Below are positions 16,655 through 21,119 of a stretch of 50,962 nt of DNA, piece after piece. Made by a program: the position numbers and the translations under genes. The stretch is taken from the IMG/VR virus record IMGVR_UViG_3300045988_055689, one strand, 5' to 3'. Source of the DNA: a virus. The notes beneath the pieces are model-generated. The model ran no database searches. It was not told the DNA's origin and saw only the letters and a program-made list of their open reading frames with translations. Numbering within the stretch: the first letter of the stretch is position 1; every line of letters starts with the position of its first letter.

Positions 16655-17013
16655 GCATACTCCTTTCTGTCATCATAAAGAAGCTCTATTTGTTTGATAA
16701 AGGTCTCCAGTCCGGAGAAATTTCCCGCTGCTGCATATCGCTGGCATATGTCCTCCGCTGAAGATGCTGTATATCCGCAGGCTACCAGCCGCTTGACAAG
16801 CTCAGACCCATTCACAAGCAAAATAACACGTCCTTTCAAACAAAAAACGGAGTCCGTGAGGAGGGCGGCGACGTGTACCAACCCTTGAATCCTCACGTCC
16901 TCCATGTCTCTATTGTCGCATAAAAAATCCCCGCATGGGTGGCATCCATGTGGGAATTGTGTGAAGTTATGTGAAAAGAATAATGAGCCGTCTGGTTGTG
17001 ACAAACGGCTCAT
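16651..17013 (-). CDS. Hypothetical protein (Cys/His-rich N-terminus)
   Basis: 120 aa. It overlaps the next gene by ATGA. Confidence 0.45.
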   Translation of the reverse strand: MSRLSQPDGSLFFSHNFTQFPHGCHPCGDFLCDNRDMEDVRIQGLVHVAALLTDSVFCLKGRVILLVNGSELVKRLVACGYTASSAEDICQRYAAAGNFSGLETFIKQIELLYDDRKEYA

Positions 17014-17063
17014 GTCCCTTTTCTGATAAGGCTATGTAGGTTATGTGACAGTTGACTTGAAAT

Positions 17064-17573
17064 CTACAAATTCAGAAACATGGGCGTACAGCCTTCAACA
17101 AACATATTTGATGGCATCTCCATATCTCCTATAAACTTATTAAAGCCGTTTCGCTGGTAAAATGAAACAGCTTCTGGCACAGAATATAAAACAACATGGC
17201 TTGCTCCGCATACAGACTCAGAAATTCTATATATCTCCATTATCAAATAGCATAGACACAAGTCACTCCAGTGTTGTTCTCCGGATTCATCTGTTAAAAA
17301 AACCTGATGTTGATACCTCTCATCTACAGCAAAAATCTTAACTTCAATAGCTGGAGTAATATTAAACTTTGTCCGGGAATGAACTATAATGCCGCTGCAT
17401 GATAATGACGCTATCCCTATAAGCTCTTTCTTATCGGCATCCGCCCAAAAGCAATAGGAAACAGCGTCACTATCTGTGAGCAATTTTTCTTCAAAATACT
17501 TATCAATTTCCCTGTGACCACATTTGAAGGAAACCCCTCTGATGTCATCTGATGTCGCAGATAGACAAATCAT
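17064..17573 (-). CDS. GNAT-family acetyltransferase, TacT/AtaT-like type II toxin candidate
   Basis: 169 aa. Contains SFKCGHREIDKYFEE and IFAVDERYQHQ. It overlaps a small upstream gene by 4 nt. Confidence 0.5.
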   Translation of the reverse strand: MICLSATSDDIRGVSFKCGHREIDKYFEEKLLTDSDAVSYCFWADADKKELIGIASLSCSGIIVHSRTKFNITPAIEVKIFAVDERYQHQVFLTDESGEQHWSDLCLCYLIMEIYRISESVCGASHVVLYSVPEAVSFYQRNGFNKFIGDMEMPSNMFVEGCTPMFLNL

Positions 17574-17773
17574 TTGCCAGAATCACGTTCCTCTTGTAAT
17601 ATACGAATTTGCGCATCTAGCTGTTCCAGCCGCACGGTATCTCCGCTTTCAGCCTCTGCTTTCCTCACCTTTCGAAAGGCGTTCAGAACAGCATCCGTCT
17701 TTTGCGTTAGTATTTTAGCGTCTTTTGCATCAATTCGAAAAGCCGTTTTAATAGGTGCTGCCAACAGTGCCAT
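17570..17773 (-). CDS. Small RHH-like protein, candidate antitoxin of the GNAT toxin
   Basis: Start at MALLAAPIKTAFRIDAKDAKIL after AAAGGAGGAAAGGGGG. The N-terminus has a beta-strand-then-helix pattern. Confidence 0.4.
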   Translation of the reverse strand: MALLAAPIKTAFRIDAKDAKILTQKTDAVLNAFRKVRKAEAESGDTVRLEQLDAQIRILQEERDSGK

Positions 17774-17943
17774 TTGAATGCCCCCTTTCCTCCTTTTAAT
17801 TATACTGGCTTCCTCCTGTGCCAATCATATCATCCTCCAATATTAAATGCAACATCAAACTGTAAATTTTCCCTAGTATTTGTTTACATTTGGGCTTTAT
17901 AAAAAAGTATACGCCACTATGCAATATTGTATTCTATTCGCTA

Positions 17944-17975
17944 TGGAAAATCCGCGGAATCTTAAGATTCCACGG
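17944..17975 (-). terminator. Intrinsic terminator after the sigma-r4-like gene
   Basis: A 10-bp stem (17952-17961/17966-17975) has one pair that is G-U only on the minus strand. It is followed by attttcc. Confidence 0.5.
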
Positions 17976-17981
17976 ACTTCT

Positions 17982-18230
17982 TCAAAAATATTTTAATTTC
18001 TCTGCGGCGTTTTCTACTTTTAGAAGGATTCGTGAAATCCTGCGGCTAATCGTAGAGCGCTCCCATCCAAACTCCGCGGCAATCTCAATCTGCGGGATTT
18101 GATCAATCAGGTAGCGTTTAGCAATGTCCGTGTCATCGTTTCCCAGGTTGGCTTCCCGAATAGCCGTCTCCATTTGAGAACGCATCAGGCTATCCAGACT
18201 ATCAGGCAATTTGACACGGGCAGCTGCCAC
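17982..18230 (-). CDS. Small sigma-70 region-4-like HTH regulator
   Basis: 82 aa. IAKRYLIDQIPQIEIAAEFGWERSTISRRISRILLKV resembles sigma region 4. Confidence 0.5.
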   Translation of the reverse strand: MAAARVKLPDSLDSLMRSQMETAIREANLGNDDTDIAKRYLIDQIPQIEIAAEFGWERSTISRRISRILLKVENAAEKLKYF

Positions 18231-18248
18231 AATTTCACGTCCTTTCGA

Positions 18249-19601
18249 TTAAACTTTTCCGAGCCACTTTGCGAAACGATAAAACATAATCGCAATCTGT
18301 CTCCGAGTAGGTTGACTGTTTAGCATCATGTCTCCATTGGCGTCTCCCTGCATGATACCTACGTCCTGCACCCACTGGACCGCCAGATCACTTTCAAAAG
18401 GCTTGTCCACAGTTTCCTCCTTCCAGGCAATCCCCAGATAGTTCAGGACGCCCTTTGCTTCCGCTTCCGCCAGTTTCTGCCGGTATGCGGAGTTTTTGAG
18501 ATTTGCGGTGTCTGTTTGATTGGTGTGGAAGCCATGCTCGATCAGAACAGCCGGAGCCACGGTACCTTTCAAGACATACAGCGACGGGTCCGCCACAATC
18601 GGTGTAGACCTGACAGTAATTCCGGCGTCTTTGACGGCCTCCAGGATATCCTTTGCCGCCTCATAGCCGCTCCCGCTGGTCTTGTAGACATATGCGCTCC
18701 ATCCGGAGGCAGAGGACCAGCCTCCATCTCCAGCGGCGTTGCTGTGCAGGCTCACGAACAAATCAAGGTCTTTGATGGCGTTTGCAATCGCACACCGCTG
18801 CGCAAGGCTGACTTCCCCGCCGCCAGTCCTGGTCATGGTGGCAGCAACGCTATGCCGCTCCAGGATGCTCTGAATGCGTTTCCCCATGTCCAGGGCAAAC
18901 TCATGCTCATAATAGGTTCCGTCCGGGCTTTTGTTGGCGAGGTTTCCCGCGTCATGGCCCGGGTCCAGGACCACCTTTTTCTTTTCCACAGTTGTCTCCC
19001 CTTTCTTGAGATAGACCAGAATCAAATCATGCACGTTCCTGCTGCTCTGGATGACCGCTCCATTGAAATAACACTGGCTGGAGCCGCCGCTATCCAGCAT
19101 AACCGCGGAATCCCATCCTGCCGCTGTCAGATCGTCCCTGAGCGCTTCCGGCGTCCGGGTCATACTCCCTCCGTCCCTCGTACAGTAAAGGGCCAGAGAG
19201 CCGCCCTTGATGCCGATAGCGGAGCGTCCCCGCTTTCCTCCCTGGCCCTCGTCATAAATCAGTTTGGAGATTGGCTTTCCGGAAACAACCAGCGGTGTGC
19301 AGGTGATATAATTACGCTGAGAGGCGTCCGGCAGCGTGTCCATAGAGATGTCCGGTCCCTCATTCCAGGAGTAGCCGAAGACTGTGTAATCCGGTTTGCA
19401 GAGTACCTTCCCATCTGCTTTCAGGTGGCAGTTGGGCCGGAACGTGGACATGTTGTAGAGCGTGCCGTTGAGGATGTAATCCGCCCCGGTCTCCCTCTGA
19501 ATTTGAGAGAGAGCGCGGCGAGCGGTGTTGATGTAGAGCTGGATGCGCTGGATGTCTTTCAGAGGGATTGTTACCGCCAGATGGTCAGGCATTTCCATCA
19601 C
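18249..19601 (-). CDS. Multidomain endolysin: phosphodiester-glycosidase-like N-domain + N-acetylmuramoyl-L-alanine amidase (Amidase_3) + SLH-like wall-binding tail
   Basis: 450 aa. Contains VMLDSGGSSQ, VVLDPGHDAGN...SLHSNA...IEHGFHTN and the C-terminal stretch MQGDANGDMMLNSQPTRRQIAIMFYRF. Confidence 0.8.
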   Translation of the reverse strand: MMEMPDHLAVTIPLKDIQRIQLYINTARRALSQIQRETGADYILNGTLYNMSTFRPNCHLKADGKVLCKPDYTVFGYSWNEGPDISMDTLPDASQRNYITCTPLVVSGKPISKLIYDEGQGGKRGRSAIGIKGGSLALYCTRDGGSMTRTPEALRDDLTAAGWDSAVMLDSGGSSQCYFNGAVIQSSRNVHDLILVYLKKGETTVEKKKVVLDPGHDAGNLANKSPDGTYYEHEFALDMGKRIQSILERHSVAATMTRTGGGEVSLAQRCAIANAIKDLDLFVSLHSNAAGDGGWSSASGWSAYVYKTSGSGYEAAKDILEAVKDAGITVRSTPIVADPSLYVLKGTVAPAVLIEHGFHTNQTDTANLKNSAYRQKLAEAEAKGVLNYLGIAWKEETVDKPFESDLAVQWVQDVGIMQGDANGDMMLNSQPTRRQIAIMFYRFAKWLGKV

Positions 19602-19788
19602 TCCCGGAGTTGCGCTTTTCGGCCTGGGTACCGAAGTAGAATGCGATCACCACGGTGAATACGGTGAGGAACTGCTCTGCCGTCACGCCGCCGGTACAGG
19701 TCAGGTAGGCGAACACCGCCGTGAGAATTACCGTGACAATGCTCTTGACGGCCAGCAGGTTTGACAGCCGTTTCTTCAAAAGCTCCAT
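19585..19788 (-). CDS. Holin
   Basis: 67 aa. Two hydrophobic helices and a charged C-terminus. It lies directly upstream of, and overlaps, the endolysin gene. Confidence 0.7.
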   Translation of the reverse strand: MELLKKRLSNLLAVKSIVTVILTAVFAYLTCTGGVTAEQFLTVFTVVIAFYFGTQAEKRNSGSDGNA

Positions 19789-19830
19789 GTGTTTTCCTTT
19801 CCGGGCAGCACAAAAGCCGCCCTGTCGTGC

Positions 19831-19858
19831 TTGACAAAGCGGCTTGATTTGGTATAAT
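19831..19858 (+). promoter_or_regulatory. Near-consensus promoter TTGACA-16-TGgTATAAT
   Basis: Read directly. No ORF with an RBS lies downstream. Confidence 0.65.
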
Positions 19859-19864
19859 GAATGT

Positions 19865-19953
19865 ACAAGGGCGCTGTTGTTTGACGGTTAGCCCCTCATA
19901 CGCTCAACTCTCGTTGACCGCTCGGGTAGCAGCCGGGCGGTCAACACGCTTTT
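19865..19953 (+). ncRNA. Candidate ~90-nt antisense sRNA (type I antitoxin-like)
   Basis: It starts after the consensus promoter. It ends at a 13-bp hairpin (19913-19925/19933-19945) plus TTTT (19950-19953). Its 3' end overlaps the convergent peptide ORF. Confidence 0.5.
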
Positions 19954-20024
19954 ATGGTCAGTATGTAGGCCGTAAAGACCGCGCACACTAAAATCCAAAG
20001 GATTTTCGCCAGAAGGCGTCCCAC
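19941..20024 (-). CDS. 27-codon hydrophobic peptide (type I toxin-like): (M)GRLLAKILWILVCAVFTAYILTIKAC
   Basis: GTG start 10 nt after GAGGGGAGGTGA. One TM-length hydrophobic core is flanked by basic residues. It has its own consensus promoter. Confidence 0.45.
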   Translation of the reverse strand: MGRLLAKILWILVCAVFTAYILTIKAC

Positions 20025-20104
20025 AATCGCATCACCTCCCCTCTACAGGGAAGTGGCTAACCGCCGTATACAACAGCGCCCAGGGCCTTTTTCAAGGCAG
20101 GTTT

Positions 20105-20133
20105 ATTCTACCAAAAGCGCCGCTTTGTGTCAA
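20105..20133 (-). promoter_or_regulatory. Consensus promoter TTGACA-17-TGgTAGAAT driving the small peptide
   Basis: Read on the reverse complement: -35 at 20133-20128 and -10 at 20110-20105. Confidence 0.6.
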
Positions 20134-20138
20134 TCTTC

Positions 20139-20162
20139 GCCGCCTGGATGGGTGGCTTTTTT
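20139..20162 (+). terminator. Plus-strand intrinsic terminator
   Basis: gccgcc/ggtggc stem with one G-U pair valid only on the plus strand, followed by TTTTTT. Confidence 0.45.
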
Positions 20163-20163
20163 C

Positions 20164-20484
20164 TTACTTCCGGGTCGCCTTAACCGCGTAGCCCAGCTCG
20201 TCATAGGTCACATCAAACCTGCCAGCATTGGTCTTCTGCTCCACGACCTGACCAGCCAGCTCCTTACGGCGGGACAGGTCGGGTTTATCCGGATAAACCA
20301 CATGCTCACCAGTAGCAGGTGTAAAGCCCTGCTCCATTTCCTCCTTCGTCCAGCCGCCGCCAGGGTTCTTGTTCGGGTCCAGAGAAAAGTTCGCGCCAGC
20401 CTCTTTCAGCTTCGCGTTGGCCTCCTCCACCGTGATCTTACCGGCCTTGTACTGCTCCATGATGTCGTTGATGGTCTTGTTCAT
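20164..20484 (-). CDS. Hypothetical protein
   Basis: Start at MNKTINDIMEQYKAGKITVEEANAKLKEAG after AAAGGAAG. 106 aa. Confidence 0.55.
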   Translation of the reverse strand: MNKTINDIMEQYKAGKITVEEANAKLKEAGANFSLDPNKNPGGGWTKEEMEQGFTPATGEHVVYPDKPDLSRRKELAGQVVEQKTNAGRFDVTYDELGYAVKATRK

Positions 20485-20537
20485 AATATGTACTTCCTTT
20501 CTTTTTCCGGCTGTGCCGGTTAATAACAAACTGTTGA

Positions 20538-20879
20538 TTAGGGGACAATCAGGTTTAGAACCGCGAGTGCCGCTGCTGTCAAAATGGAGGAAAGCACCGC
20601 GACAACCACTTTGCTTTTGATATCGCTCCATTGTCTTCCTGGCTTTTGCTGTTCCGCTTCCTGCCATGCGATCAGCTTGTCCAGCTTTTCCATGATATTG
20701 TCATACTGCTCATTCCGGGCGGCTTCTGCCTTTTCAAGCTCCCGGATGCGGTCGAACAGTTTTCCGTGGGTGTCTCTTGCCTGTTCCTGCAATTTCTCCA
20801 TCTGCTTTTCCAACATGTCCGCTTTTTGCAGGCCCAAACAATCCCGCTGTGGGTCTATGATACATTTTTCATTACTCAT
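20538..20879 (-). CDS. XhlA-like lysis-associated membrane protein (coiled coil + C-terminal TM)
   Basis: The architecture and the LEKQMEKLQEQ...VVVAVLSSILTAAALAVL pattern resemble PBSX XhlA. Confidence 0.5.
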   Translation of the reverse strand: MSNEKCIIDPQRDCLGLQKADMLEKQMEKLQEQARDTHGKLFDRIRELEKAEAARNEQYDNIMEKLDKLIAWQEAEQQKPGRQWSDIKSKVVVAVLSSILTAAALAVLNLIVP

Positions 20880-20924
20880 GGGCAGCACCGCCTATCTGTG
20901 GTATAATCTTTTTGAGGTGATGAT

Positions 20925-21119
20925 ATGGATATGGATTTGTATAAAGTTACTGTGATCTGTTCAAAGTGCGGACGAATGGCCCCTTTCACTCCGCCAGATG
21001 GTTCCAACATATGGGGTTCTTGGGACTGGCATCATCCCTGTTCCTTTTGCGGGGAAACCGCATGGGTTGCCCACGAACCGGTCCGGGACTGGAAAACTGG
21101 GAAGCCGATGGACCTTTAA
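20925..21119 (+). CDS. 64-aa zinc-ribbon protein (plus-strand moron in the late region)
   Basis: Extended -10 TGgTATAAT at 20899-20907. RBS GAGGTGA. Contains CSKCG...CSFCG. Confidence 0.5.
   Translation: MDMDLYKVTVICSKCGRMAPFTPPDGSNIWGSWDWHHPCSFCGETAWVAHEPVRDWKTGKPMDL

Follow-up and report, generated by a model that had tools for sequence, protein, structure and literature searches.

A probable family of type I toxin-antitoxin cassettes in phages and genomes of Oscillospiraceae

Toxin-antitoxin (TA) systems of type I are hard to detect by homology. In txpA/RatA and bsrG/SR4, the overlap of the antitoxin RNA is with the 3' end of the mRNA for the toxin, its action depends on RNase III, and SR4 also affects the region of the Shine-Dalgarno sequence (SD). 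In hok/Sok and in the Helicobacter system aapA1/IsoA1, it is the 5' region to which the antisense RNA is directed, and the mRNA becomes active after trimming at the 3' side. In par (fst/RNAII, Enterococcus pAD1), direct repeats in the DNA provide the two RNAs with complementary 5' ends, and the start region is covered by the antitoxin. The toxin peptides of B. subtilis are about 30 to 60 amino acids long and are found on prophages (PMC10730256), a source that also gives the size and effects of Fst, and the folding of the aapA1 toxin mRNA is the subject of PMC6733600. Among the Clostridia, C. difficile is essentially the only source of known type I TA systems according to a review (PMC6563280), which makes no mention of Oscillibacter, Flavonifractor or Ruminococcus-type taxa. 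The review describes toxins of 30 to 56 amino acids with a hydrophobic N-terminus and a lysine-rich C-terminus. Five of these modules are placed within phiCD630-1 (PMC7699646), and they are reported to help maintain mobile elements (PMC7699646, PMC5961336 and PMC6563280). Here we describe a self-contained cassette of ca. 355 bp (about 19808-20162) in the phage lysis region of the virus record IMGVR_UViG_3300045988_055689, a stretch of 50,962 nucleotides that is called the window below. The cassette is predicted to encode a membrane peptide of 27 residues and a convergent antisense small RNA (sRNA), and we consider it probably the representative of a new family of type I TA modules with a 3'-overlapping antitoxin RNA. 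The class is defined by a peptide toxic on expression and by its neutralization through the RNA, which blocks translation and/or promotes decay of the mRNA. Of the further traits of the class, the cassette appears to combine a small hydrophobic coding gene, a complementary antisense RNA with its own promoter and an occluded ribosome-binding site. The original prediction had already proposed a type I TA-like module, and the promoters, coding pattern and strand-specific covariation presented below agree with it.

That these features are selected, and not the product of chance, is shown mainly by their conservation in about 70 related copies. The collection started from a blastn search against GenBank phages, which gave two short partial matches, one of them over the sRNA region. 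The contig in question (L001, from a human faecal phage) carries a diverged copy of the whole cassette in another gene context, with both promoters, two short conserved boxes, a hairpin in which a compensatory change has occurred, a peptide with the C-terminus KAC, the hairpin over the SD and the outer plus-strand terminator. A pattern derived from the two boxes then recovered 16 viral contigs and 89 genome stretches, and an nhmmer profile split the true modules from single-arm chance matches in other phyla, leaving 73 near-full-length modules, 66 of them unique. The genome members are located on about 50 contigs, nearly all from Oscillospiraceae-type Clostridia, including Flavonifractor, Lawsonibacter hominis, Oscillibacter ruminantium, Colidextribacter, Acutalibacter, Hominicoprocola fusiformis and several Candidatus genera from chicken and human gut. 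The exception among the genome matches is a "Bacteroidaceae" bin (L095), and one module-bearing contig of 11.9 kb (L005, IMGVR_UViG_2920466384_000001; P0046) is deposited as Odoribacter splanchnicus (GKD75_21545). Since all other hosts are Oscillospiraceae-type, these two are probably contaminant or mis-binned contigs and do not indicate a wider host range. Several genomes carry multiple copies, with four in tandem in L092 and two each in L055 and L022. These arrays (L092, positions 114-1658, and also L055, L022 and L085) consist of two to four complete modules arranged head to tail with a period of ca. 400 nt, the linker and the peptide differ among the tandem copies, and several metagenome-assembled genomes have copies on at least three contigs. 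Within the window, no copies of the boxes or trans targets were found besides the two arms of the cassette itself. The features of the cassette and the genes next to it are listed in Table 1.

Table 1. Features of the cassette and of the adjacent lysis genes (positions of the window; UTR, untranslated region; ORF, open reading frame; T1 and T2, predicted plus-strand terminators)
Feature	Position	Strand	Description
Peptide mRNA, intrinsic terminator	19845-19833 with 19826-19814 (region 19808-19845)	-	Stem followed by UUUUGUG
sRNA (putative antitoxin) promoter	19831-19858	+	TTGACA-16-TGgTATAAT, 12/12, TG extension
Predicted short sRNA, ~89 nt	19865-19953	+	5' hairpin, unpaired linker, T1; ends predicted from sequence
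sRNA 5' domain	19869-19894	+	Boxes GGGCGCTGTTGT and GACGGTTAGCCC, local hairpin
Linker, 18 nt	19895-19912	+	Unpaired in both predicted RNAs
Hairpin T1 and tail ACGCTTTT	19913-19925 with 19933-19945, tail to 19953	+	13 pairs, then ACGCTTTTAT
Peptide ORF	20024-19941	-	27 codons, GTG start, (M)GRLLAKILWILVCAVFTAYILTIKAC
SD-sequestering hairpin	20054-20047 with 20041-20034	-	CACUUCCCU / GGGGAGGUG
mRNA leader boxes	20055-20081	-	Pair with 19869-19893 in the mRNA's own 3' UTR
Third hairpin	20085-20098		Terminator-like on the plus strand, then T-rich run; located where the peptide mRNA is predicted to begin
Predicted full-length peptide mRNA, ~291 nt	20098-19808	-	Ends predicted from promoter and terminator
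Peptide mRNA promoter	20133-20105	-	TTGACA-17-TGgTAGAAT, 11/12, TG extension
Terminator T2	20139-20162 (stem 20139-20156)	+	GCCGCCT GGAT GGGTGGC, then T6
67-aa protein gene	19585-19788	-	phrog_13256, "unknown function"
106-aa protein gene	20164-20484	-	
116-aa protein gene	20538-20888	-	phrog_937 ("hemolysin", XhlA-like)

A scan for sigma-70-type promoters between 19300 and 20700 returned exactly two sites, against 0.7 expected in shuffled sequences, and these are the two convergent promoters that had been predicted. Both are conserved in the 65 modules compared. The sRNA promoter matches the consensus at 12 of 12 positions in 60 modules and at 11 of 12 in the remaining five, and the peptide promoter at 9 to 12 positions in 61 of the 65, so that the former is systematically the stronger by consensus score. 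As also anticipated, no conserved plus-strand ORF lies in the sRNA; the possibility of one was rejected, the lone ATG (19857) being inside the -10 box and not conserved.

The predicted sRNA folds with a minimum free energy (MFE) of -37.8 kcal/mol (z = -4.3). It is perfectly complementary to the 3' UTR and the last four codons of the peptide mRNA, and the overlap of the two RNAs would give a duplex of 89 bp with -197.7 kcal/mol. Its 5' domain has the same sense as the mRNA leader and a near-identical sequence. Hairpin T1 holds the stop codon of the peptide in its 3' arm, and the Lys-Ala-Cys codons supply its tail. Across the family, 99.4% of the T1 cells in the alignment are paired, and 7 of the 13 pairs have changed on both sides (AU42/GC21, GC32/AU31 and UA46/CG15 among them). 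All three stop codons occur in the 3' arm, and the opposite arm has changed to match each of them. At two positions of the stem, 27 and 35 sequences have a U·G pair, which would be a mismatch if read on the minus strand. In the 5' hairpin of the sRNA, 97% of cells are similarly paired, and its pair 19877/19884 is found as UA38/CG14/UG9, with the G·U form valid only on the plus strand. The covariation in both hairpins, with wobble pairs permitted on one strand only, therefore indicates that selection acts on a plus-strand RNA. Between the hairpins, the linker is hypervariable across the family, tandem copies included, and because it is also unpaired in both RNAs, it is likely the region of nucleation and specificity. 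In one divergent relative (L188, positions 1374-1725), the ORF ends in QKVS, 17 nt before T1, and the nucleotides of the K-A-C-stop codons are still there as T1 tail; the persistence of the tail without coding indicates that its sequence is kept for the RNA.

On the opposite strand, the 27-codon ORF with its GTG start was found as predicted, with the SD (GGAGG, 20039-20035) located 10 nt 5' of the start codon. The window peptide consists of one predicted helix; its N-terminus is basic, its core is hydrophobic, and it ends in IKAC. Conservation in relatives had been suggested as a check on this ORF, and ORF and SD-like motif are intact in 65 of the 66 unique modules, with start codons ATG (55), GTG (5) and TTG (5). 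The sole broken copy (L012, 3526-3907) has a 1-nt deletion that leads to a premature TAA and the loss of YISPKAC, in a module with intact promoters and RNA elements; the toxin may truly have been inactivated here, or the deletion may be an error of sequencing. The family consensus is MG.GRW.K.LRF.VC, followed by ca. 12 hydrophobic residues and YI(S/A)PKAC, and the window peptide belongs to a shorter subfamily ending in YIL(T/S)IKAC. Codon statistics were calculated for 38 unique ORFs of 31 codons. Entropy at codon positions 1, 2 and 3 was 0.81, 0.48 and 0.87, the median ratio of nonsynonymous to synonymous substitution rates (dN/dS) was 0.56, and Arg5, Arg11 and Ala30 were invariant despite varying third codon positions (Pro28 was invariant at all three). 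The terminal Ala-Cys is retained through synonymous GCG/GCT/GCA and TGT/TGC codons. Because of its intactness, the codon-position pattern and the synonymous changes at invariant residues, we read this ORF as a translated gene evolving as genuine coding sequence.

Two elements of the peptide mRNA had been overlooked in the original prediction, the hairpin that sequesters the SD and an intrinsic terminator. The SD hairpin is paired in 96 to 98% of cells across the family, with compensatory changes (CG43-45/UA17 and UA29-33/CG18). Three states of the mRNA were modeled, namely as nascent transcript, in closed form and with the 3' UTR masked to imitate binding of the sRNA, and in all of them the SD bases mostly had an unpaired probability of ca. 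0.01 or below. With the 3' UTR masked, the leader refolds in the model to form a 5' hairpin similar to the one in the sRNA, and the start codon becomes somewhat more open. The stem of the mRNA terminator encloses the -35 box of the sRNA promoter and ends ca. 20 nt before the ATG of the downstream 67-aa gene. For this terminator and for T2, pair counts in fixed alignment columns gave 70 to 80% paired, as hairpin lengths differ and MAFFT misaligns them, and so each sequence was folded or scanned separately. Read in this way, about 40 of the 66 modules have an equivalent, strong minus-strand hairpin with a U-run around the -35 box, with differing stem sequences.

The leader of the mRNA was said to be an imperfect inverted repeat of the sRNA 5' domain, with potential to fold back on the 3' UTR, and both parts of this claim held. 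Positions 19869-19880 are complementary to 20070-20081 at 12 of 12 positions and 19885-19896 to 20052-20063 at 92%. When the full-length mRNA was folded, the 5'/3' closure was part of the MFE structure (-134.9 kcal/mol, z = -7.4), and none of 200 shuffled sequences was as good. Across the family, the two helices are paired in 92.8% and 99.7% of cells, compared to at most 62% with the partner slid along. Nearly all the variation (UA44/UG16, GC43/GU16, GU37/GC24 and UA46/UG16) is wobble-compatible only in the sense of the mRNA, and one pair is CG40/UA13. The covariation score of the mRNA structure was reached by none of 500 shuffles. In the distant relative L188, recovered through a protein search, box A reads GCGCTGTAC in both the leader and the sRNA arms, so the helix is kept. 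It should be noted that, in the window and its relatives, the boxes GGCGCTGTTG and CGGTTAGCC are near-invariant while the ORF, the linker and the stems diverge freely. Complementarity of a cis-antisense pair does not need a fixed sequence, and candidate reasons are a host-factor site, gene conversion between the arms or a constraint from three-way pairing.

Some viral contigs (L009, L011, L014 and L017) have flanks, promoters and boxes almost exactly as in the window, and a central segment of ca. 190 nt (linker, T1, ORF and SD hairpin; 19895-20054 in the window) that is another variant, with the peptide MGHGRWMKVWRFLVCLLIVLWIMIYISPKAC. The pattern resembles an exchange of cassettes through recombination at the conserved boxes. 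Such swapping between otherwise identical flanks, the many genomic contexts, the near-invariant boxes and the large imperfect inverted repeat that spans promoter and boxes on both sides would also fit non-coding mobile or structural DNA, either similar to a miniature inverted-repeat transposable element (MITE) or serving as a bidirectional promoter/terminator insulator, with an incidental ORF. We give this explanation very little credence. An incidental ORF would not be expected to stay intact, with a coding pattern and synonymous changes at invariant residues; the repeats are internal and not terminal; and the strand-specific G·U covariation points to selection on RNAs of both strands. No transposase or target-site duplication was seen, although no systematic search was made for either.

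The genomic context argues for an autonomous element. In the window, the cassette is located in a lysis cluster entirely on the minus strand, in the transcription order XhlA-like 116-aa gene, 106-aa gene, cassette, 67-aa gene and Amidase_3 endolysin. The 116-aa protein, besides its XhlA-like match, weakly resembles DUF2951, and together with the 106-aa gene it suggests a PBSX-like lysis cluster split by the cassette. The 67-aa protein has two hydrophobic segments and its gene overlaps the start of the endolysin gene; it has no Pfam or NCBIfam match, and its relatives are found at more than 580 viral loci. It had been called a holin, a name that follows from its position and the two hydrophobic segments, the only family match being to phrog_13256. 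The original prediction had also offered, as an alternative, that the sRNA times expression of this holin, and more generally the cassette could time the lysis genes (the 67-aa holin-like gene and the endolysin). Its place between the two pairs of genes is compatible with that, and a minus-strand terminator 20 nt before the 67-aa ATG must affect local read-through. However, among the best 80 viral loci with a homologue of the 67-aa gene, the cassette is present in a single one and absent from the other 79, so it is not part of the conserved design of the lysis cluster. Where the closest relatives lack the cassette, the stop codon of the upstream gene is immediately followed by the ATG of the 67-aa gene (GAGGAGGGCTGATATGGAG). 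Elsewhere, the cassette is next to mreB, divIVA-like, comF-like, V-ATPase B/D and methyltransferase genes, including non-phage contexts, and no complementarity exists between the short sRNA and the 67-aa gene. A role in the timing of lysis is therefore highly improbable. Both this explanation and that of a MITE or insulator were rejected. Insertion into a tight stop-start junction, several copies per genome, tandem arrays and unrelated flanks are behavior typical of TA modules, and the cassette is best described as an autonomous insertion with its own promoters and with predicted terminators on both sides.

Directly after the endolysin gene, the window has a low-GC island (about 16900-18300, GC content of 0.38-0.44 versus ca. 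0.55 in the flanks). It encodes a 169-aa protein (17064-17573, minus strand) with weak matches to GNAT acetyltransferases, an 84-aa ORF (17570-17824) that overlaps its start and a short protein similar to sigma-70 region 4 (17982-18230). The GNAT gene with a small upstream ORF is reminiscent of GNAT-type type II TA pairs, with no match at the curated threshold.

Under the type I TA reading, the cassette could work as follows. The moderately strong minus-strand promoter would give an mRNA of ca. 291 nt for a single-helix membrane peptide, and its translation would be held by three locks: the SD in a local hairpin, the GTG start and the leader paired with its own 3' UTR. The perfect-consensus plus promoter would produce the antisense sRNA, with a short form of ca. 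89 nt ending at T1. Pairing of the two RNAs would start at the 18-nt linker, and possibly also at the complementary T1 loops, and would spread and displace the leader from the 3' UTR; the long duplex would then undergo RNase III-type cleavage and decay, by analogy with the 3'-overlap prophage systems of B. subtilis. In its closed state, the mRNA would be stable and inert. If the cassette were lost or sRNA synthesis stopped, the closed mRNA would outlast the sRNA and the peptide would damage the membrane. The biological role might be maintenance of the prophage or locus, or phage exclusion. Since leader and sRNA share the same 5' sequence, they would compete for one site in the 3' UTR of the mRNA. 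We tentatively put forward, as a possibility we would not yet favor, that an imitation of the antitoxin is built into the toxin mRNA itself, derived from an inverted duplication of "promoter plus ca. 30-nt 5' domain," and that this gives a dormant pool resistant to the antitoxin, with the linker setting sRNA-mRNA specificity among copies and the boxes acting as host-factor or crossover sites (the swap between the window and L009 is the example for crossover).

Several points weigh against reading the cassette as a type I TA module. For every member of the family we infer the transcripts, toxicity, neutralization, RNase involvement and biological role. T1 has a weak U-tract, with 3 to 5 T in the 12 nt after the stem, and the 4 nt between the stem and a run of only 3 to 4 U make it a poor intrinsic terminator. 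Of the proposed sRNA of ca. 90 nt, the 13-pair hairpin and its overlap with the stop codon are well founded, and the length is therefore uncertain. With so weak a tail, a read-through antisense RNA is plausible, ending either at the third hairpin, an element not noticed before that has equivalents in a subset of modules, or at T2. The latter had been claimed as a second plus-strand terminator with a strand-specific G·U pair; it is there, directly 3' of the upstream gene's stop codon, and has two such pairs, each of which would turn into an A·C mismatch if the minus strand were read. A GCCGCC...GGCGGC stem with a T-run is found at this position in roughly 30 of the 66 modules by the per-sequence reading, and other plus-strand terminators in more. 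T2 would stop antisense read-through. To continue with the adverse points, the C-terminal codons serve at the same time as T1 tail, which confounds the interpretation of their conservation. The SD hairpin persists in all modeled states, which leaves the activation of translation unaccounted for. The changes in the leader/3' UTR helix are mostly one-sided and wobble-compatible, with true double changes in one or two pairs, and the near-invariance of the boxes could come from a protein-binding site or gene conversion instead of pairing. Finally, five family peptides gave no match to a toxin family (Fst/Ldr, Hok/Gef, TxpA/BsrG, Ibs, TisB and others) in Pfam and NCBIfam at E values up to 10, and an Rfam cmscan of 19000-21000, also at E values up to 10, gave three chance-level matches elsewhere in that stretch.

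A small non-toxic membrane protein tuned by a cis-antisense RNA, such as a regulator or accessory subunit of a membrane complex, a superinfection-exclusion factor or a modulator of lysis, would be compatible with coding selection, both promoters and the antisense RNA. The cassette would then be a small-protein gene under antisense control and have no function in addiction or killing. An endolysin gene adjoins 15 of the modules, and the invariant C-terminal Cys and the conserved Arg might be the sign of some specific interaction and not of damage to membranes in general. We nevertheless regard this explanation as unlikely, because the triple lock on translation, the stronger antisense promoter, the tandem multicopy arrangement, the unrelated loci and the mosaic exchange are together the signature of type I TA systems and not that of small proteins with housekeeping roles, and no conserved partner gene travels with the cassette among the flanks compared.

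If the type I TA reading is true, it adds a well-defined family, of about 70 loci and 93 protein clusters, in Oscillospiraceae and their phages, with an RNA architecture supported by covariation. These hosts are major and poorly tractable gut commensals. The protein clusters were obtained by searching N-terminally extended natural versions of the ORF against a collection of 5.8 billion proteins, and all 93 are unnamed or "hypothetical" and without a Pfam domain. There is also a practical side: a strong bidirectional promoter/terminator cassette would interrupt phage lysis operons, and its ORF of 27 to 31 amino acids is left unnamed or "hypothetical" by annotation. The antitoxin-mimic logic, if true, would be a regulatory scheme not described for any type I TA system.

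In the literature on peptide motifs and on type I TA systems in Oscillospiraceae, nothing relevant was found, and the comparison is with systems of other bacteria. The prophage and CRISPR-adjacent modules of C. difficile, such as the pairs CD0977.1-RCd11 and CD2517.1-RCd8, are alike in being type I TA modules on prophages of a Clostridia-class gut bacterium, but the peptides described here have their basic residues at the N-terminus and end in (P/I)KAC. The par system resembles the cassette in its convergent genes, shared 3' hairpin, repeat blocks at both 5' ends and membrane peptide of ca. 30 amino acids. The cassette has no Fst/Ldr family match, and its repeats are inverted, so that GGGCGCUGUUG...CGGUUAGCC is present in the two RNAs with identical orientation and they cannot pair there. 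For this reason, of the systems whose layout the original prediction had matched to the locus, fst/RNAII drops out, and txpA/ratA and bsrG/SR4 remain by virtue of the 3' overlap. These share with the cassette a Gram-positive host, the prophage location, a small membrane peptide, an SD that is partly or fully sequestered and a convergent antisense RNA overlapping the 3' end of the toxin mRNA and not the ribosome-binding site; the sRNA predicted here lies entirely within the predicted mRNA. The differences are the absence of peptide or RNA sequence similarity, the Oscillospiraceae hosts and a leader that is nearly a copy of the antitoxin 5' domain and pairs with the same 3' UTR site. As in hok/Sok and aapA1/IsoA1, the full-length mRNA would be closed 5' to 3' with its SD occluded, as an inert form. 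The peptides are unrelated to Hok (with no match to the Pfam Hok family), and the antisense RNA here is directed to the 3' UTR and last codons instead, so that leader and antitoxin would compete for one site. The architecture would thus join an antitoxin with 3' overlap, as in txpA/RatA and bsrG/SR4, to a 5'/3' closure of the hok and aapA1 type, a compact natural case in which mRNA closure is combined with a 3'-targeting antisense RNA.

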